Positions 7,845-21,703 of a DNA stretch of 64,000 nt are shown one piece after another. The DNA comes from an uncultured bacterium (lineage in GTDB: Bacteria; Vulcanimicrobiota; Xenobia; Xenobiales; Xenobiaceae): assembly GCA_934636825.1 (NCBI GenBank), contig CAKUBG010000013.1:1234-65233 (forward strand), given 5' to 3'. Both the position numbers and the translations under genes were made by a program. Numbering within the stretch: position 1 is the first letter of the stretch; each line of letters starts with the position of its first letter. The notes beneath the pieces are model-generated. The model was not told the origin of the DNA, made no database searches, and saw only the letters and a list, made by a program, of their open reading frames with translations.

Positions 7845-7853
7845 GAGGTCGCG

Positions 7854-8411
7854 GTGAATAGAATTTTATGGTGCGGAGTGGTTATGACTGCGCTCACGGT
7901 CGGCTGCCTCTGTACGGCAGGTTGTACACCCAAGGAGAAAGTTGTCATTCGTACCGGCACTATCAACAGTACGGTTGTACTTCAGGAAGATGACAAATAT
8001 CAGGAATTGTCCCGCCAGTACTTCGCCGAGCGCATCAAGGCTAGCCAAGAAGTACAGCGTATAGTTAAAGAAAATTCCAACGCTGATGGCGTCGTCAGTG
8101 ATAAATCTGTTTATGATAAGCTCATGAAGATTCAGAGTGACGTTGAATCAAAATGGCAAAAACGCACTGCCGATTATATCGATGCCAAAATGAAAAGTAT
8201 GGAGAAAGCTGCTTCAGAAGTAGCTTTGGATAAGGAACTCGATATTGTTTTAATCGACTCCAACGATGTTCCAACTGTAGAGTATGGCGGTCACGACATT
8301 ACCGCTAATGTTCTGGCGGCTATGCCGGGATTTGCCGGAAATGCATCTTCTGAAGGCGAACAAAACAAAGGTGCCAAGACTGCGGAAAGTGGCTCTCAAG
8401 GCAGCAAGTAG
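7854..8411 (+). CDS. Skp/OmpH-family chaperone, lipoprotein-like (paralog 3)
   Basis: GTG start after GGAGGT. Signal peptide ending in Cys (LTVGCLCTAGC). Canonical ~160-aa OmpH body. Confidence 0.65.
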   Translation: MNRILWCGVVMTALTVGCLCTAGCTPKEKVVIRTGTINSTVVLQEDDKYQELSRQYFAERIKASQEVQRIVKENSNADGVVSDKSVYDKLMKIQSDVESKWQKRTADYIDAKMKSMEKAASEVALDKELDIVLIDSNDVPTVEYGGHDITANVLAAMPGFAGNASSEGEQNKGAKTAESGSQGSK

Positions 8412-8433
8412 AAAGAGCGGAGGGATAAACAAT

Positions 8434-8907
8434 TTGCAATATTCGAAGTTTGTACACTGCTTAGTTCTGACGGCTGTAAGTGCTATTCTGCTTTTGGGCG
8501 GTAGCGGTTGCGCTGAGCGTACATTAAAGGTTGGTGTTGTCAATACCGAGAGAATTATTAGAGAGAATCCTAAGTATATGGAGCTCAATGTTATTCTCTC
8601 CGACGAGCGCAGCAAGATCTATTCGCAAATTCCTAGCAATGTCAGCAGTATGTCTGTGGCTCAGAAAAAGGCCTTGCAAGAAAAGCTGGCCAAAGATGCT
8701 GCAGAGAGATCCAGCAAGTTTGATAAGCTCTACAATGAGAGTATGAAAGGTTTGCGGGAAGATATTAAAGCTCAAGCTTCCGAAGTGGCTCAAGACAAAG
8801 ATATAGATTTAGTTGTAGTTAACACTGTAAATTATCCTGTTGTGCTTTATACCAGCGGAGATAATATTACTCTGGATATTTTGCTGAAAATGGATGGCTC
8901 TAAATAA
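8434..8907 (+). CDS. Skp/OmpH-family chaperone, lipoprotein-like (paralog 4); start revised to TTG 8434
   Basis: GGAGGG RBS precedes the in-frame TTG. Signal peptide ending GGSGC. OmpH-like body (VGVVNTERIIRENPKY...). The ORF-track start at 8284 overlaps the upstream gene. Confidence 0.6.
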   Translation: MQYSKFVHCLVLTAVSAILLLGGSGCAERTLKVGVVNTERIIRENPKYMELNVILSDERSKIYSQIPSNVSSMSVAQKKALQEKLAKDAAERSSKFDKLYNESMKGLREDIKAQASEVAQDKDIDLVVVNTVNYPVVLYTSGDNITLDILLKMDGSK

Positions 8908-9621
8908 ATGGAAGAACAGTTTGTACATCCGAGTGCTTGCATAGACAGTTCCGCTTCTTTAGGTAAAGAGTGCAAAGTCGGAGCCATGGTCGTAATTGAA
9001 AGTGGAGCTAGAGTAGGCGACAGGGCTGAGATAGGCCCTAAAGCTTATATCGGTCGCAATGTTCGTATAGGTTCCGGAGCGATTATCGGCTGTGGGGCTG
9101 TGCTTATGGATGATACCGTTATCGGTGACAAAGCTGTTATTGAAGCAGGAGCAGTTTTAGGCATGGATGGTTTCGGCTATGTCTTTGACGGCCGGAGTCA
9201 TCGCAAGATCCCTCAAGTTGGCAATGTCGTTATTGGCGAGGGAGCTAAGATCGGTGCTTGTTCTTGTGTGGATAGAGCTGCTACAGCTTCTACTTTAATC
9301 GGAGACTATACTGAATTGGGGCATATGGTTATGGTAGGCCACAACAGTAAGGTCGGCAATCATTGTCGTATCGGCGACCAGAGTGGTTTGACCGGATCGT
9401 CTGTAGTAGGCAATAATTGCACCATCGGCTCTCAGTGCGGTATCGGTGTGCGTGTAGAGTTGGGAGATGGCTGTGTGCTTATGGATCGTTCTACAGCCAT
9501 GCGCAAGTATGAAGCCGGACAAGTTTTGGCCGGTAATCCCGGTCGTCCTGTGGCTGAAGTGCGTCGTGCCGAAGCTGCTTTTAACTTGCTTCCTAAGCTT
9601 TTAAAAGAGCATATGAAGTAA
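8908..9621 (+). CDS. LpxD-like left-handed beta-helix N-acyltransferase lacking the N-terminal uridine-binding domain
   Basis: 237 aa. Hexapeptide repeats and the LpxD-type core (GFGYVFDGRSHRKIPQVGNVVIGEGAKIGACSCVDRA). Sits in the canonical bamA-skp-lpxD position. ATG abuts the upstream stop. Confidence 0.7.
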   Translation: MEEQFVHPSACIDSSASLGKECKVGAMVVIESGARVGDRAEIGPKAYIGRNVRIGSGAIIGCGAVLMDDTVIGDKAVIEAGAVLGMDGFGYVFDGRSHRKIPQVGNVVIGEGAKIGACSCVDRAATASTLIGDYTELGHMVMVGHNSKVGNHCRIGDQSGLTGSSVVGNNCTIGSQCGIGVRVELGDGCVLMDRSTAMRKYEAGQVLAGNPGRPVAEVRRAEAAFNLLPKLLKEHMK

Positions 9622-9674
9622 TAATATTAGGCCCGTCGGCGTTGTGTGTTTCCGGCGGGCGTAATAATTTTAAA

Positions 9675-9701
9675 TGGCCCTTGCCGAGGGCTGTTTTTTT
9701 T
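9675..9701 (+). terminator. Rho-independent terminator
   Basis: GGCCCTTGCCGAGGGCT hairpin followed by TGTTTTTTTT. Confidence 0.55.
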
Positions 9702-9831
9702 CGTTAAATTGCCGTGCCTATAATGGGGGAAAATTTAGATATAAAGTTGCGGCATCGGGGGAAATAACAAATTGGGTTTGCTGTCTGTACTTGAAAACAG
9801 AGACAGCAAGTCTTATGGAGCTGAGTTTTTT

Positions 9832-11661
9832 ATGAAAGGTCATAAGCTTTTAGCCCTAGTGCTGGCTTTTGCCGCTTTTTATTTTTGTGCCCTTCAGGCT
9901 GCTTGGGCTGCTGATGTTGTTTTAGGTGGACAAGTTGTCTTTCGTATCAGCGACGAAGAGCAAGCGGAAAGAATTTCTGAGAAGATCGAAGCTATGTTGC
10001 AAAGGGGCGCTTCCTCTTCTTCAATTAAGGTAGTTCGCAAAGAAATTGCCGGAACGACAGACAAAAAAACTACTGAGGCTAGCGATAAAAATAACAATAA
10101 AGCCAAAAAGTCTGTGTATAAGATCTATTGGGGCAGTGAATTAATTATTGAAGTTAATGATGAAATTGCCAAACAAAATGGCTCTTCACCGGAGGCTTTG
10201 GCCAATCTTTGGGCTTCTAATATGCGCAATATCGTTGATATTGGCCTCTTAAATGTTGATACAGCTCGTGCTATTTTAGCTGTCAATGCCGAAAAAACCA
10301 TCTCAGCTACCGGCTTAGCTAACGGGCCGTTAATCGTAGAAGAAGCTGCCGGGGTCGTGGATATTGATGTCGATCAAGACAACGGATTGATAAAATTAAC
10401 TGGTAGAAGAGTAGGTAAATCTTCTCTTATTATCAGCAAAGGCGTAGCCTCGGTTACGGTATTTGTGCAAGTAAAAGACTGGGCAGGCAAATTGCCTCAG
10501 TCGGTTACTGTAGAAGTCAGCGGTACTCCGGCCCAGGCTGACGCCGTCTCTCAAGCTGTTATGCTTTCTATTGCGGCCAATACTTTTGTGCAACCAGGAT
10601 GTAGTGTCTATGTAGACGATACCAATTTCCACCCTGTGCCTGTACCTAAAGGCGATAGCATGCGCTTGAGCGTACCTGTAGGTATAAACGCTTCTGATGA
10701 CTATTTCGCTGTAAGAGGCGATGTAAATGTATTGATCCAAAATATTGACATACCTTATGTCGAACAAAATTTGCTTTTAGTGAGTAATCGTCCTGAAAGA
10801 GTTGATACTGACGGTGTGCTTATGAAATACAATTTCAAAAAGCGCGAACCTAGTCGCTTGATGTTTTCTCACCTTAATGCTTCGGCTAAAAATCGTTATT
10901 TATGGATCAACTTGGCTAATTTGAATGATGAGCCGGTAAAAATAGTAATTAGCAGAACTTCAGCCGGACCTGAACGCAGTGAAATCTACGTTGGACAAAC
11001 TGCTGCTAAGCGCTTCTTGGAAAATTTGGCTTGCCATTCCGGATATGTAATTACTTTGCCGCCCAATTCCGCTTTAGAATTAGCTTCTTATGTCATGCGT
11101 CCTGAAGCTTTGGTGAGTGGTTTTATAAACTTTCAAATTTTGGAAGGGCCTAGCGCTACTGTGGAAGTGCGCAGTGCCTTGAATCCAAATTGTAACGATG
11201 GACGCACGCTTCCGGAAATTGGTGCTCCTTTTAATCCTTTTAAGATCCATCCTCATGGAGTATTTGCTCAGCCTTATTTTGAAAATGAAGGTGAGTTTGT
11301 GGTTGGTGGCAGTCCTTTAACCTTCCGCTACGGAGAAAGTCCTTGGCTGATCGACTTCGAGACTGGTTTGCCCAATACTGGAAATTTTGGTGTTCTTTAT
11401 AAATCTTTGGTTGAACTGAAGAACCCGACCAGGCGTACCAAAACGGTTGGCCTTTACTTTACGCCTCTGTCAGGGCCAGGTGGAGCCAATTTTTTGATCG
11501 GTGATTCTGTTTATCAAGCTATTTTCCGCAAAAAAGGCGATGAAGTGCTGGTAGCCAAAATTGAGTTGTCTCCGGAATCGAGTAGTACAATAGAAATAAT
11601 TACTTTGCCGGAAGCGACTTCTTGCTATCCTGCGCAATATGAATTGCGCGAAATAGACTGA
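9832..11661 (+). CDS. Secreted hypothetical protein (609 aa) embedded in the lipid A cluster; start revised to ATG 9832
   Basis: GGAG RBS precedes the ATG. Signal peptide KLLALVLAFAAFYFCALQAAWA. No recognisable catalytic motifs. Does not end in an aromatic residue, so it is not an obvious outer-membrane barrel. Confidence 0.55.
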   Translation: MKGHKLLALVLAFAAFYFCALQAAWAADVVLGGQVVFRISDEEQAERISEKIEAMLQRGASSSSIKVVRKEIAGTTDKKTTEASDKNNNKAKKSVYKIYWGSELIIEVNDEIAKQNGSSPEALANLWASNMRNIVDIGLLNVDTARAILAVNAEKTISATGLANGPLIVEEAAGVVDIDVDQDNGLIKLTGRRVGKSSLIISKGVASVTVFVQVKDWAGKLPQSVTVEVSGTPAQADAVSQAVMLSIAANTFVQPGCSVYVDDTNFHPVPVPKGDSMRLSVPVGINASDDYFAVRGDVNVLIQNIDIPYVEQNLLLVSNRPERVDTDGVLMKYNFKKREPSRLMFSHLNASAKNRYLWINLANLNDEPVKIVISRTSAGPERSEIYVGQTAAKRFLENLACHSGYVITLPPNSALELASYVMRPEALVSGFINFQILEGPSATVEVRSALNPNCNDGRTLPEIGAPFNPFKIHPHGVFAQPYFENEGEFVVGGSPLTFRYGESPWLIDFETGLPNTGNFGVLYKSLVELKNPTRRTKTVGLYFTPLSGPGGANFLIGDSVYQAIFRKKGDEVLVAKIELSPESSSTIEIITLPEATSCYPAQYELREID

Positions 11662-11852
11662 GTTTTATTCAGACTCACATTTGAGTAAGGTCTGTCTATA
11701 CCGATACGGTTGGGCAGACTTTATTTTTTGTCGTTTGATAAATGTGTGCTTAGGTTGCTTCGGGCCAAAAATGGAGGAATAGCCAATTTTATATAAAAAA
11801 GTTGGCGGAGTTTTTAATCAATTATATTACAGTCGTTGGGGAGAACATTTCC

Positions 11853-12686
11853 ATGTGCAGAGCGCAGCGTACTTTAGCTGAAGAGATCTCTTTTGAGGGA
11901 GTGGGTATCCATACCGGCAAGCTCGGTCACTTAACTATAAAACCTGCTTCTGTCGATCATGGAATCGTTTTTTTGAGTGGCGGGGAATATATTCCGGCTA
12001 CTTATGAGTATGTTGTCTCTACTAAACGTTCTACTTCTTTAGGAAAAGGCCAAGCTGTAGTCGGCACGGTAGAACACTTGATGGCTGCTTTAGGTGGCTT
12101 GTCCATAGATAATGCGTTAATAGAAATCGATGGGCCAGAAGTGCCTATTTTAGACGGCTCTGCTTTGCCTTTTTGCCAAGCTATAGAAAAGGCTGGTATT
12201 GTAAATCAGAAAAATAGCGAAGTAGAAGATTATTATATTGAAGAGCCCATTTTTGTTGCTGAAGGTGAAGGGTTGGTTTTAGCCATGCCTGACTCGCAGT
12301 ACAACTTGGAGGGAGCCGTTAGCTACGCCAGTCCGCAAGTTGGCAATCAGCGCTTCCGCTACTGCGGTTATGACAACTTTGTTACTCATGTCGCTCCCGC
12401 TCGCACTTTCGGTTTTTGGTCAGAAGTAAAAAGTTTGTTGGAAAATGGCCTGGGGCAGGGTGGCGATCTTTCCAACGCTTTGATTTATGATCGTCCCGGT
12501 TTTGATGTGGAAAGCGCTCAACGTTTCGTCAACGAGCCTGTGCGCCATAAAGTTTTGGATTTAGCTGGCGATCTTTGTTTGCTTGGTCGTCCTTTGCGGG
12601 CTTTTGTCTTAGCTGTTCGTGCCGGTCATAAATTGCATGTGGAATTCGTTCGTAAAGTCGCTGAGGAGATGCATAAAAATGCTTAA
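11853..12686 (+). CDS. lpxC: UDP-3-O-acyl-N-acetylglucosamine deacetylase LpxC; start revised
   Basis: RBS GGGGAGA. LpxC N-terminus (RAQRTLAEEISFEGVGIHTGK). Family-typical length. Confidence 0.8.
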   Translation: MCRAQRTLAEEISFEGVGIHTGKLGHLTIKPASVDHGIVFLSGGEYIPATYEYVVSTKRSTSLGKGQAVVGTVEHLMAALGGLSIDNALIEIDGPEVPILDGSALPFCQAIEKAGIVNQKNSEVEDYYIEEPIFVAEGEGLVLAMPDSQYNLEGAVSYASPQVGNQRFRYCGYDNFVTHVAPARTFGFWSEVKSLLENGLGQGGDLSNALIYDRPGFDVESAQRFVNEPVRHKVLDLAGDLCLLGRPLRAFVLAVRAGHKLHVEFVRKVAEEMHKNA

Positions 12687-13104
12687 TATCAAAGATATCT
12701 TACATAGGACTCCCTACAAGAGCCCCATGCTTTTTGTTGATGTTGTCACTGAACTCAACTTCCCGGAAATCTCAGGCTATAAAAATATAACTATGGCTGA
12801 GCCCCATTTCGAAGGCCATTTTCCCGGCAATCCCATTATGCCAGGTGTTTTGCAAATGGAAGCTTTAGCTCAGCTTTGTTGGTTGCTTTATGTCGGTAAT
12901 GACAATGCCCCCATAAAAGCTTCTACTTTAGATTTAGTTGGGGCTAAAAAATTCAAATTTAGAACTCAAGTAGTGCCGGGGGATCGCCTCGAACTTTATG
13001 CCAAAGAAATAGAACGTGATGACAAAAATGTTACTTTGTCTGTACGCGCTCGTGTAGGAGAAAATACCGCTTGCGAAGGTGTGCTTACTTTCGCTTGGCA
13101 TTAG
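12679..13104 (+). CDS. fabZ: 3-hydroxyacyl-ACP dehydratase FabZ; start revised
   Basis: RBS GAGGAG. Hot-dog-fold motif FEGHFPGNPIMPGVLQMEALAQ. Overlaps the lpxC stop by 8 nt. Not fused to lpxC. Confidence 0.8.
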   Translation: MLNIKDILHRTPYKSPMLFVDVVTELNFPEISGYKNITMAEPHFEGHFPGNPIMPGVLQMEALAQLCWLLYVGNDNAPIKASTLDLVGAKKFKFRTQVVPGDRLELYAKEIERDDKNVTLSVRARVGENTACEGVLTFAWH

Positions 13105-13218
13105 AAGCGGTCTTTGTCGCTCGTTTGTTGTAGGAAACTGCCTTTTAGCGGGCGAAATAAGCGCATTTTCACGTGTTAGCTTTTAACGGATACGGAATTG
13201 TTGGGAGGAAGCATAAGT

Positions 13219-14157
13219 ATGAAGCCAATTAGAGTTGGCGTAGTCGGTATCGGCAGTATGGGTAGGAACCATGCTCGAGTGTGTTCTGAGCTGCCTCAGA
13301 TCGAATTGGCAGGTATTGTAGATCTTGATGAAGTCAAGGTCGCTCCTTTAGCTGGGCAATACGGTACGAAATATTATAAAGATTATCAAAGCCTTTATGG
13401 AAAAATTGACGGCGTAGTTATCGTTTCTCCTACTCCGCTCCACTACCAAATAGCTCAAGATTTTTTAGAGCATGGCATACATGTTTTAGTTGAAAAACCC
13501 ATTACTGTGGAAGTGGAACAAGCCAAGCGTTTGGTGGCTTTGGCCAAAGAGAAGAACTTAATTCTGCAAGTCGGCCATTTGGAACGCTTCAATCCTGCTA
13601 TTCTTAAGCTTAAAGAAATGGTGGGCACTCCCGTTCTTATCGAATGTCATCGCCTGTCTGGCCCTACGACCCGCAACTTAGATGTTGGTATTATTTGGGA
13701 TTTAATGATCCACGATTTTGATATCCTTTTGAGTTTGTATAAGTCTCCGGCGGAAGAAATTCATGCCATGGGCGCTTCTATCTACTCTAAATTTGAGGAT
13801 GTGGCTCATGTACAAATCCGTTTTGAGTGTGGCGCTGTAGCTAGTTTGGTAGCCAGCCGCAACTCTGGTGAGCGTAAGCGTTGCTTAAAAATTACCGAGA
13901 ATACCGGGCGTGTATTCTCCTTGGATTTCATCAATCAAACTTTGACAATTTCGCGTCCAGGGCCGGACGGTCGCCCTCTGGAACCTGAATTTGTCAATAT
14001 CGAAAAAGAAGAACCTCTCCGTTTGGAACTTAGTAACTTTGCGGATTGTGTTGCCAACCATAAAGAGCCTGTCGTTTCTGGAGAAGACGGTGAGCGCGCT
14101 TTGGAGTTGGCTGTGCATGTATTGGAAAATATGCATAGGATTAAGATTGCCGAGTAG
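13219..14157 (+). CDS. Gfo/Idh/MocA-family NAD-dependent oxidoreductase; GnnA-like candidate
   Basis: RBS GGGAGG. Rossmann N-terminus (IRVGVVGIGSMGRNHARV). Located between fabZ and lpxA. Confidence 0.75.
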   Translation: MKPIRVGVVGIGSMGRNHARVCSELPQIELAGIVDLDEVKVAPLAGQYGTKYYKDYQSLYGKIDGVVIVSPTPLHYQIAQDFLEHGIHVLVEKPITVEVEQAKRLVALAKEKNLILQVGHLERFNPAILKLKEMVGTPVLIECHRLSGPTTRNLDVGIIWDLMIHDFDILLSLYKSPAEEIHAMGASIYSKFEDVAHVQIRFECGAVASLVASRNSGERKRCLKITENTGRVFSLDFINQTLTISRPGPDGRPLEPEFVNIEKEEPLRLELSNFADCVANHKEPVVSGEDGERALELAVHVLENMHRIKIAE

Positions 14158-14205
14158 TTTTTCTCCAATATTTAGTAATTTTTTGATCGAGAGGAGATTC
14201 TGAAA

Positions 14206-15015
14206 GTGATTCATCCCAGCGCTATAGTACACCCCAAGGCACGCATAGGCGAAGGTGTAGAAATCGGCCCCTTTTCCATTATCGGTGAGAATGTCGAAAT
14301 TGGTGACGGTACCAAAATTATGTCGTCTGTAGTGATTGATGGTTGGACGACTATAGGTAAAAACAATCGTATCTATCCTGGCGTGACTATTGGCTTAGCT
14401 CCTCAAGATTTTAGCTATAAAGGGCAGCGCTCTTTTGTAACTATTGGCGACAATAACGATTTTCGCGAATATGTAACTATACACAGAGCTGCCGATGAAG
14501 ATGGACTTACTTCGGTAGGCAGTGGCAATCTCTTAATGGCCAATGTTCATATCGCTCACAATTGTCGTATAGGAAATCAGGTGACTATGGCCAACTACGC
14601 CGGCTTAGCTGGTCATACTGTTGTTGACGATCAAGCTGTTTTGGGTGGTTTGGTTGGTATTCATCAGCATACTCGTATCGGTCGTCTTTGTATGGTAGGC
14701 GGTTGCTCTAAGATCAATAAAGATTTACCTCCTTTTAGTATTGTTGACGGCAATCCGTGCCGTTTATTTAGTATGAACTTTAGAGGTATGCGCCGTCGCG
14801 ACATATCTAAAGAAAGCCGCTTGGCTATACAAAAAGCTATTTTTATCCTTGGCTCCATGGGCTTAACTATTAGTGCCGCTATAGAACGCATTGATAGTGA
14901 ATTAGAGCACACTCCTGAGGTTGAGCAATTCTTAGACTTCTTGCGCGCCCCTTCGCGCATGGGAGTGCTCAATAAAGCCAGCAATGTGGGGGCCAGAACC
15001 CACAATAACGCCTAG
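14206..15015 (+). CDS. lpxA: UDP-N-acetylglucosamine O-acyltransferase LpxA
   Basis: GTG start after GAGAGGAG. Hexapeptide repeats (MIHPSAIVHPKARIGEGVEIGPFSIIGENVEIG). LpxA-like C-terminal helical domain. Confidence 0.8.
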   Translation: MIHPSAIVHPKARIGEGVEIGPFSIIGENVEIGDGTKIMSSVVIDGWTTIGKNNRIYPGVTIGLAPQDFSYKGQRSFVTIGDNNDFREYVTIHRAADEDGLTSVGSGNLLMANVHIAHNCRIGNQVTMANYAGLAGHTVVDDQAVLGGLVGIHQHTRIGRLCMVGGCSKINKDLPPFSIVDGNPCRLFSMNFRGMRRRDISKESRLAIQKAIFILGSMGLTISAAIERIDSELEHTPEVEQFLDFLRAPSRMGVLNKASNVGARTHNNA

Positions 15016-17479
15016 TTGGTGCATTTTGGCCAATAACCAGCATCAGCAATTATCCGCCTGCCCGCAGCTTACGGTTGCTATAATCGCTGTAGAGCCTTCC
15101 GGAGATCTTCACGGAGGAAATTTGGCTAAGGCTCTGCTGGCAATTAACCCCAACTTGAAGTTTGTCGGTGTAGGCGGTTCGCATATGGCCGCGTCGGGAG
15201 TGAAGCTGTGGTTAAAAACCACTGATATGGCTATCATCGGTCCCGGCGGGGCTCTTTTGTGTTTGCACAAGTATATATATCACTACTTATATGTGCGCTC
15301 TCATTTGCTTGAAGCTAAGCCCCATCTGACTATTTTGATAGATTGTCCGGCTGTAAATATGCGTTATGCTGGTCTTTTAACCAGATATGGCTACAATTCT
15401 GTCTATTATTTCCCACCTTCAGCCTGGACAACGAGCGAAGCTCGCTTGCGTCAAATTTTTAGTCGCACTGACAGAGTTATTTGCACTTTTTTAAGCAATG
15501 CCGAAAATTACCGTCGTTTCGGTATGGAAGTTGATTTTTTCGGCCATCCCTTGTTGGATATGCCCGAATTGTCTATATCTCCTGAAGAGGCCAAGCGTAT
15601 TCTTGGTCTATCCGGAGAAAATATTTTAGCTATTTTGCCTGGCAGTCGGACGCCGGAAATAAAGTATCTTTTACCTACTTTTTTGAATATCGCTGAAAAA
15701 TTGCATGCAGAAAAGCCTGATTTGCAAGTTTTGATTCCGTGCGCTACCGAAAACTTGCACAGCCAAATCACCGAGATAATGGGAGATAGGTTCCCTTATG
15801 TACGCCTTCTTGATGGTCAGTCTCGTTTGGCTCTTTTATCTAGTCGAGCCGCTCTCATGAGCTCCGGTACGGCCAGTTTAGAAGCTGCTATTTTGGGCAC
15901 TCCTATGGTTTTAGCCTATAAGTTGTGCCCATTCGATGCTGCTGTGGGACGTTTTTTGCTTTGGGCCCATATTTTAAAAATAGATCATATCGGCTTGCCA
16001 AGTTTGGTAGTAGGTAAACGCATTGTTCCTGAATTTATTCAAGATGAAGTTAATGCCGAAAATATACTTCCACATTTGCGCAATTTTATGTCTGATACTC
16101 CTGAACGCCGTCAAATAAAACAAGATCTTTTGGATATGAAAAATTCTATGGGATCTCCGGGAGTTGTTGATAAAATAGCGGCTTCACTTTACGAGCGCAT
16201 TAAAAATAATGCTGAGCGCCGTCAAAAAGAGCCGTTTGATATTGTCATTACTTCTAATTCTCCTGGTGAAGTTGCTGCTTGGGTACGTCGCACTGTGGCC
16301 CATTTGGAAATAGCCAATCAAGGATTGTTTAGAGTAATAGTTGCTCTAGTTCCTTGCCCTTATGCTTCTGGGGCTGAAGCGGAAGTAGCTGCCTCTTTAC
16401 CCGGTGTGTCTGTTGTTTTGAAGCCTAGTCAGACTTTGCGCTTAATGCTTGGTTTATTTAACGATTTTAAATTTCGGCAGCGCGGCGTAGTTGTTTTCTT
16501 AGGCGGTGACTTACTCCATGCCAAAATTTTAGCTTGGCGTTTACGATACAAATCGGTGGCTTATGCCGTTAGATATAATTACTTTTTGCCTTATTTTGAC
16601 AAAGTAGCTGCTTCGGATACTGCTTTAGCTAAGGAGTTGGAAGAGGCTGGAATAAAGGAAGTTGTCAGTATTGGCAATTTGAGCATTGATGGTGTTTTTT
16701 CCGAAGTAGATCGCGAGTCTGCTTTGCAAAATAAAGAAAAGCGTGGCTCCTGGAAGATCGGTATTTTTCCGGGATCGCGTTTCTTGCACACTAAGATAGC
16801 TTTGGGAGTCTTTTTACGGGTAGCTGCTCTCATAAAGACGCGTTATCCTCAAGTAGATTTCGTACTCTCAGTCTCTCCTTTTGTTTCTAAAGCCAGATTA
16901 GAATCTGCTCTTTACCATCCTATAAGTTTGGGATTGCCTATAGCTAAAGGAAAGTTGGTAAGATCTGATTGTATTTTGGTAGATTGTCCCCATGAAGCTG
17001 AAGGTACAGCTGGACGTAGTTTTGAGGTAGAAGTGCTTTGGGGCCATCCTTACCAGGCTATTGCTGAAATTGATATGGCTCTTACTATTCCCGGAACTAA
17101 TACCGGAGAATTGGGAAGTTGCGGAAAACCGATGGTAGTGGGGCTGTCAGCTGATGCCTCTTTACCAAGAGGCGGAATCGGTGGTCTCTTAGAAAATGCG
17201 CCTCTTCTTTCTAAGATAAAACGTTACTTGCGTTTGCGCTCCTATGCTCGCCATGGTTTTGCTGCTATACCAAATCGTATCGCTTCACGTTTAGTCGTTC
17301 CTGAAGTTTTGGTTAAAAAAGATACTTCTGTTTTGGCTAAGCCTATTTTTGAATGGATTGAAGATCCTAAAAAATATGCGCAAACGGTTGAAGATCTGAA
17401 AAAGACTATGGGAACTACCGAAGGGGCCGGCCAACGCATGGCCGAGCTTATTTTAACAGCGGTGGCTTTAGAACAATGA
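14984..17479 (+). CDS. lpxB: Lipid-A-disaccharide synthase LpxB fused to a second ~430-aa LpxB-related domain
   Basis: LpxB N-terminal signature (TVAIIAVEPSGDLHGGNLAKAL). 831 aa, versus ~380 aa for stand-alone LpxB. Exact start uncertain: ATG 14984 overlaps lpxA by 32 nt and a TTG at 15026 is an alternative. Confidence 0.7.
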   Translation: MWGPEPTITPSWCILANNQHQQLSACPQLTVAIIAVEPSGDLHGGNLAKALLAINPNLKFVGVGGSHMAASGVKLWLKTTDMAIIGPGGALLCLHKYIYHYLYVRSHLLEAKPHLTILIDCPAVNMRYAGLLTRYGYNSVYYFPPSAWTTSEARLRQIFSRTDRVICTFLSNAENYRRFGMEVDFFGHPLLDMPELSISPEEAKRILGLSGENILAILPGSRTPEIKYLLPTFLNIAEKLHAEKPDLQVLIPCATENLHSQITEIMGDRFPYVRLLDGQSRLALLSSRAALMSSGTASLEAAILGTPMVLAYKLCPFDAAVGRFLLWAHILKIDHIGLPSLVVGKRIVPEFIQDEVNAENILPHLRNFMSDTPERRQIKQDLLDMKNSMGSPGVVDKIAASLYERIKNNAERRQKEPFDIVITSNSPGEVAAWVRRTVAHLEIANQGLFRVIVALVPCPYASGAEAEVAASLPGVSVVLKPSQTLRLMLGLFNDFKFRQRGVVVFLGGDLLHAKILAWRLRYKSVAYAVRYNYFLPYFDKVAASDTALAKELEEAGIKEVVSIGNLSIDGVFSEVDRESALQNKEKRGSWKIGIFPGSRFLHTKIALGVFLRVAALIKTRYPQVDFVLSVSPFVSKARLESALYHPISLGLPIAKGKLVRSDCILVDCPHEAEGTAGRSFEVEVLWGHPYQAIAEIDMALTIPGTNTGELGSCGKPMVVGLSADASLPRGGIGGLLENAPLLSKIKRYLRLRSYARHGFAAIPNRIASRLVVPEVLVKKDTSVLAKPIFEWIEDPKKYAQTVEDLKKTMGTTEGAGQRMAELILTAVALEQ

Positions 17480-18141
17480 AAATTCCTGATAAAAACAAAA
17501 AGATGGCTCCGCCTTTTATTTTTAAATGGCGCGGTCTCATAATGGCTATGGTTACCGCAATTATTTTGATAGTAGCTCACCCAACTGTAGGGTCGTGTTG
17601 CTGGGGAATAGCGCTGGCTATTTGGGGCGAAATGTTACGCTCTTGGGCTTTAGGATGGACTGGAGAGCATACGCGCAGCCAAGAGCTGAAAGCTTCGTTT
17701 TTGGTAACTAGTGGCCCTTATAAATATATACGCAACCCGCTTTATTTGGGAAATATCCTAACCGGGTGCGGCGTTATGGTTGCCTCGTGTGGTGCCCTTT
17801 CGTGGGTGGCCAGCTTAGCTACATGGCTTTTGGGATCTTTCTCTTTGTATGTAGTTTATGCTTCTTGCATAATTTCTGAAGAGGCTTTTCTGGCTGTCCG
17901 TTTTGGCGATATTTTTTTTAACTACAAAGCATGCACACCGGCGATCCTACCCAGTTGGCATTCCATCCCCGAATTTGTAAGAAGCTTTTTTTGCCCTAAT
18001 TGTGGAGCAAATAGCGATAAAGTCTATGAAGGAGAATCCTTCTCCTGGAAGTCGCTTCGTTTCGAGTATAGCACTTGGGGATGGCTGGTTTTTGTATGGC
18101 TGTTTCTTTTTATGAAAGCTGTTGGTAAGCTTCCGCTATAA
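17476..18141 (+). CDS. ICMT/Ste14-family membrane methyltransferase; LmtA-like candidate
   Basis: Multi-TM protein carrying the ICMT motif (YKYIRNPLYLGNIL). ATG overlaps the lpxB stop (ATGA). Confidence 0.65.
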   Translation: MKIPDKNKKMAPPFIFKWRGLIMAMVTAIILIVAHPTVGSCCWGIALAIWGEMLRSWALGWTGEHTRSQELKASFLVTSGPYKYIRNPLYLGNILTGCGVMVASCGALSWVASLATWLLGSFSLYVVYASCIISEEAFLAVRFGDIFFNYKACTPAILPSWHSIPEFVRSFFCPNCGANSDKVYEGESFSWKSLRFEYSTWGWLVFVWLFLFMKAVGKLPL

Positions 18142-19285
18142 TTGCAGCCATTCGCTCAGAGCCTCCTGGAGGCCCGAGTCTCTTGCGTCCGACTTCTGCA
18201 CGCCTTTGTCTTTCAGCTTTGTCTTGGATAAGGTTACATAAAGTTTCGACTATATCTGCATCGCGATCTTCGCTGACAATAAGTGAATCTCCAAGTAAGC
18301 CCTTTTGACGTGCTCTGTACCATTTTAAGTGGCTCATACCTCCCGGCTCGTAAGCTACTACTGGAATGCCCCAACCGGCGGCTTGCTCGTGGGCTGTTCC
18401 GGCTAGCCCCAAAGCTACTTGACTATATTGCAACACATCAGCTAAGTGGCCTTTTATTAAAAAAAAGCGGGCTCGAGGAGTAGTAGCTTCGTCTTTATAA
18501 GTTAAAGTATGCCAGCCGGGATAAGGGCAATCGCCCAAAGTAAAGTCAGAGCAGGCTTGAGCTAATTTTTCGGTATCTATAGAGGGGGCTACAGCTATAA
18601 AAGCACATATGTCCTTACCCAAACGTTTGGCTAACATTTGGCTCAATTTGAGTAAACGAGGCAACACTTGGTAGGTAGCTTTTCTGCTACCGGGGAAAAG
18701 AGCTAAGCCTATTTCTTTAGCTTCATCTAATGAAAAGTCCAAATCTTGGGGGATTAAACCGTCCATCATGGCATTGCCTACCCAAGCTGCTTTTACACCT
18801 TTTTGGCGTAGGCTTTCGGCAGTGGGTTCATCTCTAACTATGGAATGTACCTGGAAAGTTCTGAGGATGAAAGCTTCCAAAGTAGAATAAGGATGATGAT
18901 AATCCGATTTTGCCGTGCCTATAAAAGTAATGGGGCGTATGCCGGAAAGTATAGCCAATATAACCGGCCATAAATCACCTACAGCTACAATTTGATCAAA
19001 TTTCGAACGTTGACGGCGTAACCAAGCAATTTGCTTAAGCGTTAAGGAAAATAAACCTCCGCTTATGTCTTTCCATAAATTACGCCAATCTTCCTGAATA
19101 AGCCCTCCGCTAGGCATAAGTTGTCTGGGGCCCACGACTGGAGCTAAGCCCTCATAAGCAGAACCTTCTCCAACCAGAGGCATAGCTTCTCGGGGGAGCG
19201 ATTCCGGCAAGTCGGCTATAATCTGGCTGGCAATAGAATCTTCGCCTGCTCCGTTGGATATAAATAAGACACGATGAGAAGCCAT
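18110..19285 (-). CDS. LpxB-related glycosyltransferase-like protein (lipid-A-disaccharide-synthase-related family)
   Basis: 391 aa. N-terminal motif VLFISNGAGEDSIAS parallels DIVITSNSPGEVAAW at the start of the second domain of the lpxB fusion. Last gene of the minus-strand lipid A operon. Confidence 0.55.
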   Translation of the reverse strand: MASHRVLFISNGAGEDSIASQIIADLPESLPREAMPLVGEGSAYEGLAPVVGPRQLMPSGGLIQEDWRNLWKDISGGLFSLTLKQIAWLRRQRSKFDQIVAVGDLWPVILAILSGIRPITFIGTAKSDYHHPYSTLEAFILRTFQVHSIVRDEPTAESLRQKGVKAAWVGNAMMDGLIPQDLDFSLDEAKEIGLALFPGSRKATYQVLPRLLKLSQMLAKRLGKDICAFIAVAPSIDTEKLAQACSDFTLGDCPYPGWHTLTYKDEATTPRARFFLIKGHLADVLQYSQVALGLAGTAHEQAAGWGIPVVAYEPGGMSHLKWYRARQKGLLGDSLIVSEDRDADIVETLCNLIQDKAERQRRAEVGRKRLGPPGGSERMAAIIAEAYQQLS

Positions 19286-19303
19286 AATTTCCCTCTTAGA
19301 AAG

Positions 19304-20149
19304 TTAGCGTAAATTTAGTAATTGATATTCGCTCAATTCTGGATGCTCGAAATTATAATCTAATTTGCCAATATAGTGAGCCCAAGAACCAGTTTGGACT
19401 ATAAAATTGTCGTTGATTTTTATCGGCTCGGCAAGCACGGTGTGACTGTGACCGCCCAGAATCCAGGTGCCTTTGGGCAATTGGGCTGCCAAAACTTTAT
19501 CTCTTTCCAGTCCCAAGTGGCTTAAAACGATTAGGCGCAATGGCTTATCTAACAACTTAGAACAACGTTCGGCTAAAAGTGGCAAAACCGTCTCAGCTTC
19601 AAAAAATCTGAAGCCGAAAATCTTTTCCCAAATGGCATTGTGAGGGTATTGGACAGGAACCGCAGCCAAGAGAAGCAGTGGGTAGTGTTTTGACCAGTTT
19701 TTGTTATACAGTGACAAAGCTGAAACCCAGCGTTTGGAAGATAAGTCTCGCCACAATTTCGCTTTACGCCAGCTACTGTCTTGGCAATTTACTTCCGGAA
19801 CTGAGTTCAGTTGTTTTATCAATTGTTCGTCAGTTAATTTTCCGTCTTGTCTAATGTCGACAAGATTGCTGCAAAGCAAAGGAAAAGAGCGCTGTGCAGC
19901 TCTTTTGTCCAAAATGCGACGCTGATAATTAAACTCTCTATTGCCCATAGCCATAGAGGCACAAAAAATTGAGCCCATTTTTTCTAAATTTGGCTCATAA
20001 TTTTTCCACACTGTATTGGAGCCAAGCAAAGCATCGCCACTGTCAAAATATAGAGCTTGACCTTGGGCTAATGATTGCTTGGCATTGGCTTTTAACCAAT
20101 CTAGGGCTTCTGCGTGCCCATGCATGTCATTTGTATGATAGATGAGCAC
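19304..20149 (-). CDS. Calcineurin-like metallophosphoesterase resembling the UshA/5'-nucleotidase N-terminal domain
   Basis: Metal-ligand motifs HTNDMHGH, FDSGDALLGSN and GGHSHT. 281 aa, with no C-terminal nucleotidase domain. Confidence 0.7.
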   Translation of the reverse strand: MLIYHTNDMHGHAEALDWLKANAKQSLAQGQALYFDSGDALLGSNTVWKNYEPNLEKMGSIFCASMAMGNREFNYQRRILDKRAAQRSFPLLCSNLVDIRQDGKLTDEQLIKQLNSVPEVNCQDSSWRKAKLWRDLSSKRWVSALSLYNKNWSKHYPLLLLAAVPVQYPHNAIWEKIFGFRFFEAETVLPLLAERCSKLLDKPLRLIVLSHLGLERDKVLAAQLPKGTWILGGHSHTVLAEPIKINDNFIVQTGSWAHYIGKLDYNFEHPELSEYQLLNLR

Positions 20150-20168
20150 TACTTTGCTCCACTTTAAG

Positions 20169-20729
20169 CTAGCTTTTTTGGGCAGATCGCTCTTTAGCTA
20201 CTTGATCGTATACTTGGCGATAACGTTCCAAACCGATAGCGTTCATAATTACGGCTCCGTAACCTATAAGCCATCCCACTCCTGCTAAAGCTGGGCCACC
20301 TATTGAAAGGCCTAACCAAAGCCCCAAACAGCCAAAAATTAGGCTGGCCAACATGGGCTTAGAGTCGAGGGATATGGAATAACCGAAAGATACCCCTATA
20401 AGAGCTCCTACCAAACCGTAGTAGGCTCCTTTAGATATATCGGCTGAAGTAGTGGCTACGGCTACACTAGCTTTGGCAGCTTGAATTAAAGGAGAGGCAG
20501 ATTGTCCTACGTCGATTATTGAGTTGGCTCCCCATAAGAAGCCCATTAACAATCCTATACCGGCGAAACCATAGCAATACCAACGTTTTTGATCTTTGGT
20601 AAGAAAAGCCGTAGGAGCTTCAGATGATTGTTGCTCTGAAGATACAGAAGACGTCTTGTTGTTATCGACTTGAGATTGCATATTCTTTTTGTCTTTTTTT
20701 TTGTTTTCTTTAGAAGAGGTTGAACTCAT
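20169..20729 (-). CDS. Small membrane protein with a Ser/Gln-rich N-terminus and Gly-zipper TM helices
   Basis: Three or four predicted TM helices with GxxxG-type motifs. No recognisable family. Confidence 0.5.
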   Translation of the reverse strand: MSSTSSKENKKKDKKNMQSQVDNNKTSSVSSEQQSSEAPTAFLTKDQKRWYCYGFAGIGLLMGFLWGANSIIDVGQSASPLIQAAKASVAVATTSADISKGAYYGLVGALIGVSFGYSISLDSKPMLASLIFGCLGLWLGLSIGGPALAGVGWLIGYGAVIMNAIGLERYRQVYDQVAKERSAQKS

Positions 20730-20737
20730 AATTTATG

Positions 20738-21703
20738 TCAGTCCTTCGGAGAAAGTTTAGCCAGCTGTTGAATCTGTTTCCAATGCTTGAGAGGAAGCTG
20801 GCGCATGGCTGTTTGGCGCATGGAAGTTTTGTGGGTATCAATGGGATCGCCAGACCAAATTGCTTGGCCTGCTGGTACATCCTTGTCGACGCGAGAACGG
20901 GCTGCTACTGTGGCAAAATCTCCGATCTGGCGGCCTTCTTCCACTAAGCATTGACCGGCTGTAATAGATAATTTACCTAAACTTACATTTTGTTGTAAGC
21001 AATTTTGAGAAATGACAATAGCTAGGGGAGCGATTTTTGCGCCTTTTTCAAAGCAAGCTAAATTATCTATACGGACCCCGTCTTGAATAAACGCGTGGTC
21101 GCCGATAAAGCAGCGAGCACCTATTTCTATATCGTTCCCCAAAACGGAATCGTCTTCAATAATGGTAAGTGGGCCTACCAAACTCTTTGTGCCCAATTTT
21201 ACGTTTGCACCCACAGAAACGCCTGGCATAAGACGCGTATTGGCTCCTATAGAGCTATTGCTGCCGATACTGGCATGGGCCATAATTTGGCAATTGTCAG
21301 CAACTATAGCATTGTCGCCGATAATAGCAAAAGGGCCAATATATGCTGTTGGTGCAATTTGAGCCGAGTCGCTGACTTGGGCATTAGGATGAATGCCTGG
21401 CTCGTGCAAATGCGTAGGGTAGAATAATCCCAAAAGTATAGCAAAGGCAATGCGGGCATTTTTTACCTTAATAGCAGGTATCTCCGTATCTAGCTCTTCA
21501 GGGATGATGACTGCGGAAAAACCGAGAGATTCAGCTTCTTTCAGGCCGTTCTCTTTTTCTGCAAAAGTTAAAGCCTGGCTAAGAACGTGCTGGGAAGCTG
21601 CATCTAATCCCGTAACAACATTAATAGTGTGGGAAGCGTATTCTGGATTGTTCAGGCTGCCTTGCAAAAGTTCAGCCAATTCTCCTAAAGTTTTTACCAC
21701 CAT
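20738..21703 (-). CDS. lpxD: UDP-3-O-acylglucosamine N-acyltransferase LpxD (full length)
   Basis: N-terminal uridine-binding-like domain followed by hexapeptide repeats (PTAYIGPFAIIGDNAIVADNCQIMAHASIGSNSSIG) and a C-terminal helical region. 10-nt overlap with the upstream TldD-like gene. Confidence 0.8.
   Translation of the reverse strand: MVVKTLGELAELLQGSLNNPEYASHTINVVTGLDAASQHVLSQALTFAEKENGLKEAESLGFSAVIIPEELDTEIPAIKVKNARIAFAILLGLFYPTHLHEPGIHPNAQVSDSAQIAPTAYIGPFAIIGDNAIVADNCQIMAHASIGSNSSIGANTRLMPGVSVGANVKLGTKSLVGPLTIIEDDSVLGNDIEIGARCFIGDHAFIQDGVRIDNLACFEKGAKIAPLAIVISQNCLQQNVSLGKLSITAGQCLVEEGRQIGDFATVAARSRVDKDVPAGQAIWSGDPIDTHKTSMRQTAMRQLPLKHWKQIQQLAKLSPKD

Follow-up and report, generated by a model that had tools for sequence, protein, structure and literature searches.

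The locus described here raises the question of how a diderm bacterium, here an uncultured gut member of Eremiobacterota, would assemble lipid A from a cluster in and near which the usual genes for the UDP-diacylglucosamine hydrolysis step were not found. A first-pass annotation had read the cluster as Leptospira-like on the basis of a GnnA-like oxidoreductase, an LmtA-like methyltransferase and a pair of LpxD paralogues. Every open reading frame that it named is present, within 21 nt of where it had been placed. As for the interpretation, the GnnA part was borne out, the LmtA part held by half, and the Leptospira-like LpxD pair was not supported in that form. The window, meaning the whole 64-kb stretch of DNA that was analysed, has its closest named homologues in Candidatus Bruticola (Vulcanimicrobiota, class Xenobia), and the only member of the phylum brought into culture is a diderm whose outer membrane contains LPS and which has 3-OH fatty acids (PMC9758169). 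Gene identities rest on homology, and the chemistry of the proposed pathway is what we infer. On balance, the region appears to be the lipid A biosynthesis core of diderm Eremiobacterota (Xenobia), and its gene content slightly favours a lineage-specific variant of the Raetz pathway. This variant is predicted to comprise two Leptospira-type accessory enzymes, a split LpxD and a candidate new enzyme for one step.

Layout of the lipid A gene cluster

BamA, an Omp85 protein with POTRA domains, opens the outer-membrane/lipid A supercluster (Table 1). It is followed by a Skp-like run with Pfam OmpH matches at E-values of 1.3e-20, 4.5e-4 and 4.2e-7; the second gene of the run gave no OmpH match here, and its positional counterpart in relatives matches weakly. 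The product of the gene between lpxD and lpxC, named unk629, has no match in Pfam or NCBIfam, and a fold search with its structure model (pLDDT 89.7) gave no informative match. This gene occupies that position only in clusters bearing GnnA and/or GnnB (18/18 vs 0/36), a count that, like all co-occurrence counts in this work, is drawn from phylogenetically non-independent loci. The convergent operon also encodes a metallophosphoesterase, a third LpxB-like glycosyltransferase (GT3) and a small membrane protein, none of which had been named in the first-pass annotation. The small membrane protein has no family match in Pfam or NCBIfam, and its gene is kept between the methyltransferase and phosphoesterase genes in LpxB2-containing clusters.

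Table 1 Features of the lipid A gene cluster and their coordinates in the window.
Feature	Coordinates	Strand	Evidence
BamA	2066..5113	+	Pfam Omp85 E 3.7e-44, POTRA E 1.7e-41
OmpH/Skp-like chaperone genes	5390-6391, 6405-7844, 7854-8411, 8284-8907	+	run 5390..8907
Short LpxD (LpxDs, 237 aa)	8908..9621	+	NCBIfam NF002060 225 bits (cutoff 207)
unk629, secreted/anchored multi-beta-sandwich protein (predicted)	9772..11661	+	predicted model, one N-terminal hydrophobic segment
LpxC	11802..12686	+	Pfam LpxC E 6.6e-85; TIGR00325 228 bits (cutoff 187)
FabZ	12619..13104	+	NF000582 118.6 bits (cutoff 113)
GnnA-like Gfo/Idh/MocA oxidoreductase	13198(TTG)/13219(ATG)..14157	+	UDP-GlcNAc 3-dehydrogenase-like, predicted
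LpxA	14206..15015	+	NF003657 338 bits (cutoff 226)
LpxB domain, residues 1-405 of fusion	14984..16198	+	TIGR00215 263 bits (cutoff 190), residues 29-400
LpxB2, second LpxB-like (GT19-like) domain of fusion	16199..17479	+	hhalign vs LpxB
LmtA-related ICMT-family membrane methyltransferase	17476..18141	+	Pfam ICMT E 1.3e-7, PEMT E 2.7e-6
GT3, third LpxB-like glycosyltransferase	18110..19285	-	TIGR03492 275 bits (cutoff 219)
Cytoplasmic UshA-type metallophosphoesterase, GNRE for GNHE	19304..20149	-	Pfam Metallophos
Small membrane protein	20169..20729	-	hydrophobic segments; orthologue alignment
Long LpxD-like (LpxDl, 321 aa)	20738..21703	-	N-terminal LpxD domain
PmbA/TldD-like protein	21694..23013	-	Pfam PmbA_TldD_3rd E 8.9e-31
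LptC, LptB, LptF/G (LPS export)	25724..28555	+	Pfam LptC, ABC_tran, LptF_LptG

The frame at 14984..17479, formerly annotated simply as lpxB, is real, but it encodes an 831-aa fusion in which LpxB spans only residues ~30-400 and the rest is a second LpxB-like domain, LpxB2. The N-terminal half belongs to the LpxB family (GT19). LpxB2 aligns with LpxB at an hhalign probability of 99.7 (E 5e-27) and is a separate gene of ~390 codons in non-Xenobia relatives (L006/L007); GT3 reaches 98.8% against LpxB and 99.3% against LpxB2. Both paralogues are homologous to LpxB in these alignments yet distinct from it. LpxB2 retains the PGSR and T..E nucleotide-sugar motifs (motif reference PMC5785501). As in LpxB (GT19) and the TIGR03492 family ('lipid-A-disaccharide synthase-related'), a GT-B architecture with PGSR and T..E donor motifs is found in all three modules; unlike in those systems, LpxB is fused to a second paralogue and accompanied by a third. 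We found no described function for LpxB2 or GT3. LpxB would join the two lipid A halves, and the LpxB2 domain and GT3, which keep the nucleotide-sugar motifs, may add or handle further sugars.

A UshA-type phosphoesterase next to lpxB

Three UDP-2,3-diacylglucosamine hydrolases are known, the metallophosphoesterases LpxH and LpxG and the enzyme LpxI, and none of the three was detected within the 64-kb window. The metallophosphoesterase of the convergent operon has UshA, a UDP-sugar hydrolase, as its nearest homologue. The top folds for its model (pLDDT 96.2) are the N-terminal domains of UshA/CD73, and the top 50 Foldseek matches are all UshA/CD73-type or YunD. The protein has no hydrophobic segment and is therefore read as cytoplasmic. 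Its invariant residues are D7, H9, D35, G37-D38, G68-N69-R70-E71, H210 and G231-G232-H233-x-H235, and the alignment with UshA reveals GNREF in place of GNHEF. The GNRE form occurs in 120/120 homologues, so that metallophosphoesterase motifs are combined with Arg for the His of GNH(D/E), as in LpxH. LpxH has been described as the only metallophosphoesterase with Arg at this position, where the Arg binds the phosphate of lipid X (PMC5016852).

Membership in the LpxH and LpxG families themselves was considered and rejected. For LpxH, no NCBIfam match was obtained at E<=0.01, and the fold neighbours are those given above. LpxG retains GNHD and carries a membrane helix at its N terminus (PMC4807358), whereas the protein has GNRE and no hydrophobic segment. 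The protein thus shares the binuclear metallophosphoesterase motifs with LpxH and LpxG and the Arg with LpxH, but it belongs to the UshA/5'-nucleotidase branch and is matched by neither model. Its gene follows lpxB in 93/93 loci and lies in the lpx operon, as does the gene of LpxI, which was reportedly discovered through that very placement.

Because of this gene order and the Arg substitution, we propose that the phosphoesterase is somewhat more likely than not to take the LpxH-like role, as a candidate UDP-2,3-diacylglucosamine hydrolase. Its substrate would be the UDP-diacyl sugar, split into a lipid X analogue and UMP in the reaction of LpxH, LpxI or LpxG, with the GNRE Arg binding the sugar 1-phosphate in the manner of Arg80 of LpxH. 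The UshA/5'-nucleotidase type of its fold and sequence, which is not that of LpxH, would also suit a nucleotidase, a UDP-sugar hydrolase or a lipid phosphatase, with a canonical LpxH, LpxI or LpxG encoded elsewhere in the genome. The constant adjacency to GT3 (96/96 loci) could likewise mean that the two act together in something other than the formation of lipid X. We consider such a role rather unlikely, as it is opposed by the invariance of the LpxH-specific His-to-Arg change, the cytoplasmic character of the protein and its fixed place after lpxB in every cluster type, the minimal one included. At 280 aa it is also shorter than the 5'-nucleotidases (~520-550 aa), whose C-terminal nucleoside-binding domain it does not have.

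Complementary losses in the two LpxD paralogues

The short LpxD, LpxDs, is a 237-aa protein encoded directly 3' of BamA and several OmpH/Skp-like genes, as had been described. It aligns with residues 98-317 only of E. coli LpxD (E 5e-36), retains the F183/G184 loop, H239, N240 and G257, and has no uridine-binding domain. The long form, LpxDl, had been called a full-length LpxD; it is 321 aa long with an N-terminal LpxD domain, but it has neither the catalytic His nor the oxyanion Gly, and the GFGY loop is missing too. What it does have is the N-terminal uridine-binding domain with the F41 motif, together with D232/N233. Neither of the two polypeptides therefore combines the uridine-binding domain (F41) and Asp232 with the catalytic residues.

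This division is general in our residue table of 38 full-length, 11 short and 19 long sequences. The catalytic set (His239, oxyanion Gly257 and the repeat-5 F183 loop) is present in 11/11 short and absent from 19/19 long forms. At position 232, all 11 short forms carry Gly and all 19 long forms keep Asp, and F41 is kept in 15/16 long forms. A chain-by-chain assignment of the LpxD active-site residues is available (PMC6286764), and the residues kept and lost in the short and long forms match it. Wherever a locus has enough flanking sequence, both forms are present. Such complementary losses make the paralogues look like halves of one enzyme and not like alternative enzymes. The proposed parallel with the two LpxD of Leptospira is not supported in this form, one protein being without the uridine-binding domain and the other without the catalytic residues. 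In Francisella and Leptospira, both paralogues are full-length and active alternatives; unlike in those pairs, each paralogue here has only part of the active-site elements, and the two parts complement each other. In common with canonical homotrimeric LpxD, the proteins have the left-handed beta-helix acyltransferase fold, and the short form retains all residues of the catalytic subunit face.

These observations suggest, with about even chances, that LpxD is a heteromer of a catalytic LpxDs and a substrate-binding LpxDl, the latter being the predicted non-catalytic, uridine-binding half. N-acylation would then be performed by a split enzyme in which LpxDs brings the catalytic His and the oxyanion Gly along with the repeat-5 loop, and its neighbour in a mixed trimer, the His-less LpxDl, brings Asp232 and the uridine-binding domain. 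Each mixed trimer would hold one complete active site. A competing explanation, which we regard as possible but less probable, is that LpxDs alone forms a working homotrimer and that LpxDl has an unrelated role, as a pseudoenzyme, a regulator or a scaffold, perhaps alongside the adjoining PmbA/TldD-like protein. LpxA functions without a uridine-binding domain, and H276 and Q236 are also altered in the short form. The LpxDl gene, moreover, lies far from that of LpxDs and is always paired with the PmbA/TldD-like gene, which overlaps the LpxDl start by 10 nt and adjoins it in every locus with both in view. An LpxDl with an unrelated role is opposed by losses that exactly follow the contributing subunit, including the opposite states of position 232, by the retention of F41 and by the strict co-occurrence of both forms. 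Two relatives, L099 and L119, have GnnA together with a canonical LpxD, which indicates that the LpxD split is dispensable for the pathway.

GnnA-like dehydrogenase and ICMT-family methyltransferase

The Gfo/Idh/MocA gene sits between fabZ and lpxA, as first annotated, and its product has the corresponding Rossmann and Gfo/Idh/MocA domains (PF01408, E 1.5e-31; PF22725, E 9.9e-12). The best PDB match is A. ferrooxidans GnnA (7bvj, E 1e-49; runner-up 1e-22), with 34.6% identity over 295 aa at full length, and the best NCBIfam match is UDP-GlcNAc 3-dehydrogenase (NF040723, E 3e-80), where its 270 bits lie under the 450 cutoff of an archaeal equivalog model. The closest characterised relative is therefore a UDP-GlcNAc 3-dehydrogenase. 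Together with the DegT neighbour in relative L119, these matches support the GnnA-like identity, and we consider the protein likely to be a GnnA, a function predicted from homology. In A. ferrooxidans, Leptospira and Campylobacter, GnnA and GnnB convert UDP-GlcNAc to UDP-GlcNAc3N for GlcN3N-based lipid A.

The lack of GnnB in the window was also upheld: no DegT-type aminotransferase was found in the 64 kb by Pfam among ORFs of 150 aa or more, nor any match by tblastn with a real GnnB-like protein. GnnB is also missing from the other 22 GnnA-positive clusters, and a search seeded with the L119 GnnB returned no Bruticola- or Xenobia-named match among the top 120. These absences, and the sub-cutoff score against the archaeal model, would suit an enzyme that oxidises another sugar position or substrate in an organism with GlcN-based lipid A. 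That alternative seems improbable, since among characterised homologues GnnA is by far the best match and the same slot in relatives carries GnnB with GnnA (fabZ-DegT-GnnA-lpxA in L119, whose GnnA is 54% identical to that of the window) or GnnB alone (fabZ-DegT-lpxA in L171-L174). The slot contents indicate that members of the phylum use the GnnA/GnnB pair, often with the two genes apart. As in known GnnA/GnnB systems, the dehydrogenase gene lies inside the lpx cluster adjoining lpxA, with DegT in the slot of relatives; unlike in them, an adjoining GnnB is missing here and in most relatives. The LpxA of the window resembles the E. coli enzyme more closely than the LpxA of Leptospira, which is GlcNAc3N-specific; we regard this as uninformative. 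The GnnA-type dehydrogenase, with a GnnB encoded elsewhere, would supply UDP-GlcNAc3N to LpxA, whose product LpxC would then deacetylate.

The methyltransferase ORF contains the reported motif RNPLYLGNIL and, as had also been noted, overlaps the stop of lpxB; its start codon and that stop codon share the sequence ATGA, an arrangement of translational coupling. It encodes an ICMT-type membrane methyltransferase with SAM-binding motifs, of which R86, N87, P88, L89, Y90, F143 and G144 are invariant in 19 homologues and E135 nearly so. The claim of an LmtA-like enzyme survived only in part. In the profile comparison, LmtA (TIGR04571) is the best named family for this protein as well as 10 homologues found in other phyla, which score 46-76 bits, but the protein itself reaches 40.4 bits against a cutoff of 325 and matches both Pfam ICMT and PEMT weakly. 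Being so far under the threshold, it is not an LmtA orthologue. The polytopic ICMT fold, the intact SAM motifs and the occurrence with GnnA in a lipid A context are shared with L. interrogans LmtA, the lipid A 1-phosphate methyltransferase. Unlike LmtA, the protein is ~30 residues shorter than the 252-position LmtA profile and falls in a separate clade from MAGs of Eremiobacterota, Ignavibacteriota, Calditrichota, KSB1 and Poribacteria.

In several phyla the homologues are neighbours of lpxB, gnnA-like or lptFG genes. Of 80 homologue loci, 40 have LpxB, LpxB2, GnnA-like or LptFG in the same orientation and no more than 400 nt away; one operon (L074) reads gnnA-icmt-lpxB-DUF374-lpxK. Among lpx clusters, GnnA and the methyltransferase occur together in 22 loci and are both absent from 43, with the methyltransferase alone in 0 and GnnA alone in 1. 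The embedding of the family in lipid A and LPS-transport operons of several phyla makes a lipid A-related methyltransferase likely. Action on lipid A is accordingly the more probable reading of the gene neighbourhoods, and action specifically on the 1-phosphate is a more tentative one. With SAM, the enzyme would yield a methylated product, most plausibly at the 1-phosphate.

Carboxylates are the typical target of ICMT enzymes, and a methyl ester on a uronic acid, Kdo or an oxidised sugar, or action on another lipid or protein, possibly with the Rce1-like CPBP protease encoded in the relatives' operon, appears unlikely yet has several points in its favour. Besides the weak Pfam scores and the sub-threshold LmtA score, non-Xenobia relatives have an Rce1-like gene after the module, the homologues in class Eremiobacteria are coupled to NAD-epimerase/dehydratase (nucleotide-sugar epimerase) genes instead of lpx genes, and the tight pairing with a dehydrogenase also fits an oxidise-then-esterify scheme. 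A non-phosphate target is opposed by LmtA being consistently the best named family, across most of the profile, and by the absence of the Rce1-like gene from Xenobia loci and from the icmt-lpxB loci of other phyla. Moreover, phosphate-methylated lipid A has been reported in two types, from Leptospira and M. loti, both GlcN3N-based (PMC4103559), which fits the association of the methyltransferase with GnnA.

If its assignment is true, the phosphoesterase would be a fourth, independently recruited UDP-2,3-diacylglucosamine hydrolase that converged on the His-to-Arg change of LpxH. Methylated lipid A has so far been reported for Leptospira only, and partly for M. loti; if phosphate methylation is true for the LmtA-related clade, it would extend to at least five phyla. 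Taken jointly, a UshA-type hydrolase as a fourth kind, an obligate heteromeric LpxD in Xenobia and methylated lipid A in at least five phyla form a tentative picture in which all three may hold.

Gene content and source lineage

The lipid A locus carries a new version of the Raetz pathway; gene identities and gene order are what the sequence shows, and our readings past that point are inferred. The gene map was built from an ORF listing and profile searches of the window, and it therefore confirms the cluster genes described by the first-pass annotation. That annotation overlooked the double length of LpxB, as well as a phosphoesterase and a further LpxB-like gene (GT3) in the convergent operon. 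The methyltransferase and GT3 genes converge and share 32 nt at their 3' ends (18110-18141). Local GC rises at 40-43 kb to 0.52, against about 0.44; an rRNA operon or island was ruled out as its source, as the rise coincides with the pyruvate:ferredoxin oxidoreductase (PFOR) gene, and no rRNA, tRNA or Rfam match was found anywhere in the window.

Features of the lipid A locus and of the remainder of the window
Feature	Coordinates	Strand
BamA	2066-5113	+
Run of OmpH/Skp-like genes	5390-8907	+
Short LpxD-like protein, 237 aa	8908-9621	+
Strong terminator-like hairpin (11-bp stem and T run)	9672-9696	+
unk629, 629-aa protein	9772-11661	+
LpxC	11802-12686	+
FabZ	12619-13104	+
Gfo/Idh/MocA oxidoreductase	13198/13219-14157	+
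LpxA	14206-15015	+
"LpxB", 831 aa	14984-17479	+
ICMT/PEMT-family membrane protein	17476-18141	+
GT3, TIGR03492 "lipid-A-disaccharide synthase-related" protein	18110-19285	−
Metallophosphoesterase	19304-20149	−
Small membrane protein	20169-20729	−
Long LpxD-like protein, 321 aa	20738-21703	−
PmbA/TldD-like protein	21694-23013	−
230-aa protein	23015-23707	−
TPR protein	23830-25479	−
LptC, LptB, LptF/G	25724-28555	+
PFOR	39772-43320	+

The nearest named homologues belong to Candidatus Bruticola (phylum Vulcanimicrobiota, also Eremiobacterota or WPS-2; class Xenobia), and identical DNA is present in the Logan assembly of run ERR7738162. The phylum has a single member in culture; its envelope is Gram-negative, LPS covers its outer membrane, and it is rich in 3-OH fatty acids (PMC9758169). 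We found no literature on lipid A or lipid A genes of Eremiobacterota.

For comparison, 174 related loci were collected by homologue look-ups, a methyltransferase-anchored scan of genome collections and a phosphoesterase-anchored metagenome scan, and were typed by tblastn with the window proteins. Type I clusters (43 loci with the FabZ-to-phosphoesterase stretch fully covered) have the order BamA-OmpH-LpxD(full)-LpxC-FabZ-LpxA-LpxB-phosphoesterase-GT3-WzyC-Lpt. Type IIa clusters (L090, L103 and L111) read LpxC-FabZ-GnnA-LpxA-LpxB-ICMT-phosphoesterase-GT3, and type IIb clusters (the window and about 20 loci) add a second LpxB-like gene (LpxB2), the small membrane protein, an Rce1-like gene, the short LpxD and a convergent pair of long LpxD and PmbA. 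In Xenobia loci, LpxB and LpxB2 are fused, and the block of membrane protein, phosphoesterase and GT3 lies in inverted orientation after the long LpxD. In L088 (11794-12981) and most type I loci, a Wzy_C (O-antigen ligase-like) gene sits between GT3 and the lpt genes. Four loci labeled 'uncultured Burkholderiales' or 'Selenomonadaceae' (L015-L017 and L019) carry the Eremiobacterota-type lpxB-LpxB2-ICMT-phosphoesterase-GT3 module, and their MAGs are probably mis-binned or mislabeled.

The GnnA-like oxidoreductase and the LmtA-related methyltransferase

The GnnA-like identity of the oxidoreductase was borne out. Among solved structures, 7bvj, which a preprint identifies as GnnA, matches it best (E 1e-49; 295 aligned residues with 34.6% identity), far ahead of the next at 1e-22. 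Within NCBIfam it scores best against the archaeal UDP-GlcNAc 3-dehydrogenase model, with E 3e-80 and 270 bits, which falls short of that model's cutoff of 450. Locus L119 gives the decisive comparative result: its fabZ-lpxA slot holds a 367-aa DegT/PseC/ArnB-type aminotransferase followed by an orthologue 54% identical to the window oxidoreductase. Four Vulcanimicrobiota MAG loci (L171-L174) carry this aminotransferase type alone, so that across the phylum the slot contains GnnB and GnnA, GnnB only, GnnA only or neither, as expected if two enzymes form one pathway and their genes often lie apart. When the window and 170 loci were scanned with tblastn and a motif regex, a DegT protein was found in L119 only, in agreement with the first-pass statement that the window has no GnnB, and none lies within 10 kb of GnnA in the window and the other 22 GnnA-positive clusters. 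A homology search from the L119 aminotransferase saturates at about 50% identity across many phyla, with no Bruticola or Xenobia name in the top 120. LpxA of the window matches its E. coli counterpart at 230 bits and its Leptospira counterpart at 192, which is no guide to GlcNAc3N use. The Leptospira analogy appears right for GnnA.

The methyltransferase ATG overlaps the lpxB stop as ATGA, and the ICMT-type SAM motifs RNPLYLGN and EExFL...FG are invariant among its homologues (n=19). The proposal that the protein is LmtA-like holds in part. Leptospira LmtA outscores the other named families in the suggested profile comparison, but with 40 bits against a cutoff of 325, and by this score the window protein is not an LmtA orthologue. 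Ten homologues likewise match LmtA best (46-76 bits, each time ahead of the isoprenylcysteine methyltransferase model); they come from MAGs labeled Ignavibacteriaceae, Melioribacter, Calditrichaceae, KSB1, Poribacteria, Synergistaceae and Eremiobacterota, and from one without a label. LmtA also ranks first for 25 weaker matches.

Gene context is a stronger argument than the family score. In 40 of the 80 methyltransferase homologue loci, LpxB, LpxB2, a GnnA-like gene or LptF/G lies within 400 nt on the same strand, as in the icmt-lpxB-(DUF374)-lpxK operons of Ignavibacteria-type MAGs, the order gnnA-icmt(-lpxB) in Calditrichota and KSB1, and lptF-lptG-icmt in Poribacteria. Among Eremiobacterota lpx clusters, which are phylogenetically non-independent, 22 carry both GnnA and ICMT, 43 neither, one GnnA only and none ICMT only, a pairing true of lpx-cluster membership only: contigs labeled class Eremiobacteria, taken to be the lineage carrying type I clusters, have lpx clusters without either gene and an ICMT homologue at a non-lpx locus beside nucleotide-sugar epimerases. 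At one such position (L048:9042-10567, among loci L021-L051) the homologue is translationally coupled to NAD-dependent epimerase/dehydratase genes.

The lipid A of L. interrogans and M. loti has GlcN3N backbones, and that the phosphate-methylated types are GlcN3N-based fits the association of GnnA and methyltransferase. A methylated lipid A phosphate has been reported from L. interrogans and, in part, from M. loti (PMC4103559). The LmtA analogy for the window protein is plausible but unproven. In non-Xenobia loci (L007:13097-13867; L006, L013, L016, L050, L098 and L154), GT3 is followed by a gene for an Rce1-like (CPBP) intramembrane protease, which therefore places ICMT-like and Rce1-like genes in one operon, as in eukaryotic CAAX processing; near Xenobia loci the Rce1-like gene is absent.

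Complementary active-site elements in two LpxD-like proteins

Each LpxD active site combines elements of two chains: the first supplies the N-terminal uridine-binding domain (F41, N44, Y47) and D232, and its neighbor contributes the base H239, Q236, the oxyanion residue G257, H276 and the F183-bearing repeat-5 loop (PMC6286764). We aligned the unique LpxD sequences from the loci.

Active-site elements in 38 full-length, 11 short and 19 long LpxD sequences (E. coli numbering)
Element	Full-length	Short	Long
N-terminal domain	37/38	absent	present; TF motif (F41) kept in 15 of the 16 that cover it
F183/G184 loop	38/38	11/11	deleted in 19/19
Position 232	D 38/38	G 11/11	D 19/19
Position 233	N 38/38	variable	N 19/19
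H239	38/38	11/11	0/19
N240	38/38	11/11	0/19
G257	38/38	11/11	0/19
Position 276	H 38/38	R/K/H	almost never basic (R 1/19)

As aligned, the short form keeps exactly the elements of one LpxD chain and the long form those of the other. The two occur together in all loci with enough flank (the window, L007-L010, L012, L013 and L050), and none of the clusters carrying a canonical LpxD has a long form close by. We infer that the short and long forms may assemble into a mixed trimer that holds a single complete active site; we found no literature on heteromeric LpxD. The first-pass annotation located both lpxD genes correctly, but the long copy is not a normal LpxD, and the comparison with Leptospira fails: unlike the paired LpxD proteins of Francisella and Leptospira, the window pair has active-site elements that are complementary between its members.

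A frameshifted or mis-started short lpxD was ruled out: the gene starts directly after the OmpH-like stop, and its product measures 205-244 aa in 11 independent loci. The hairpin between it and the unk629 gene suggests that short lpxD closes the bamA-skp transcription unit. On the opposite strand, the 3' end of the PmbA/TldD-like gene overlaps the start of long lpxD by 10 nt, and these two genes are adjacent wherever both are in view.

The phosphoesterase, LpxB paralogues and accessory proteins

The phosphoesterase has the full set of binuclear metallophosphoesterase motifs and neither a signal peptide nor a membrane segment. By sequence and fold it is closest to UshA, 5'-nucleotidase and CD73, matching the N-terminal catalytic domain of each (model pLDDT 96.2; TM about 0.7). 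UshA is a UDP-sugar hydrolase, with the same chemistry as LpxH. In the GNH(D/E) motif, UshA has GNHEF whereas the window protein has GNREF, and GNRE occurs in 120 of 120 listed homologues. The paper on the P. aeruginosa LpxH structure describes LpxH as the only metallophosphoesterase with this His-to-Arg change, its Arg80 forming a salt bridge with the lipid X phosphate (PMC5016852); LpxG keeps GNHD (PMC4807358). Between lpxB and the phosphoesterase only LpxB2, ICMT, the small membrane protein or GT3 intervene (93/93 loci, minimal type I included), and the phosphoesterase adjoins GT3 in 96/96. On the basis of the UshA-type chemistry, the invariant Arg, the lpxB-side position and the lack of LpxH, LpxI and LpxG within the window, we propose the protein as the candidate UDP-2,3-diacylglucosamine hydrolase of the phylum.

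Profile-profile comparison relates LpxB2 to LpxB (probability 99.7%, E 5e-27, 340 columns) and to GT3 (99.3%), and GT3 to LpxB (98.8%). E. coli LpxB has a PGSR pyrophosphate motif and a T..E ribose motif (PMC5785501). Both are kept in LpxB, LpxB2 and GT3, so all three probably bind nucleotide sugars. GT3 is universal and LpxB2 is confined to GnnA-positive clusters (19/23); we found no literature on TIGR03492. The other phyla in the comparison have LpxK after LpxB, an order seen in none of roughly 100 Eremiobacterota loci.

The unk629 protein, which has no family match, combines several beta-sandwich domains with a signal or anchor at its N-terminus. Its gene separates lpxD from lpxC in 18/18 clusters with GnnA and/or GnnB and in 0/36 with neither. 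It represents a large uncharacterized family, which comprises 773 clusters at 50% identity (E<=1e-3), and its confident model (pLDDT 89.7) retrieved only generic Ig/CBM-like beta-sandwich folds (TM <0.2). The small membrane protein has an N-terminus rich in Lys and Ser and hydrophobic segments rich in Gly; it is kept between methyltransferase and phosphoesterase only in LpxB2-containing clusters.

Lipid A synthesis is essential in most diderms, is an antibiotic target (LpxC, LpxH) and sets the strength of innate immune stimulation. For specialists, the interest lies in two candidates, the split LpxD and the new UDP-diacylglucosamine hydrolase type. If true, the latter would be a fourth such type, closing a pathway gap for the whole phylum, and a clean case of convergent active-site evolution. 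The split LpxD, if true, would be a natural experiment showing that a homotrimer's composite active site can be divided between catalytic and pseudoenzyme subunits. In known cases, lipid A with a GlcN3N backbone or methylated phosphates is less well recognized by TLR4, which would be of relevance to a gut-associated lineage, and the lpxB-adjacent methyltransferase clade may serve as a marker for predicting GlcN3N or methylated lipid A in uncultured phyla.
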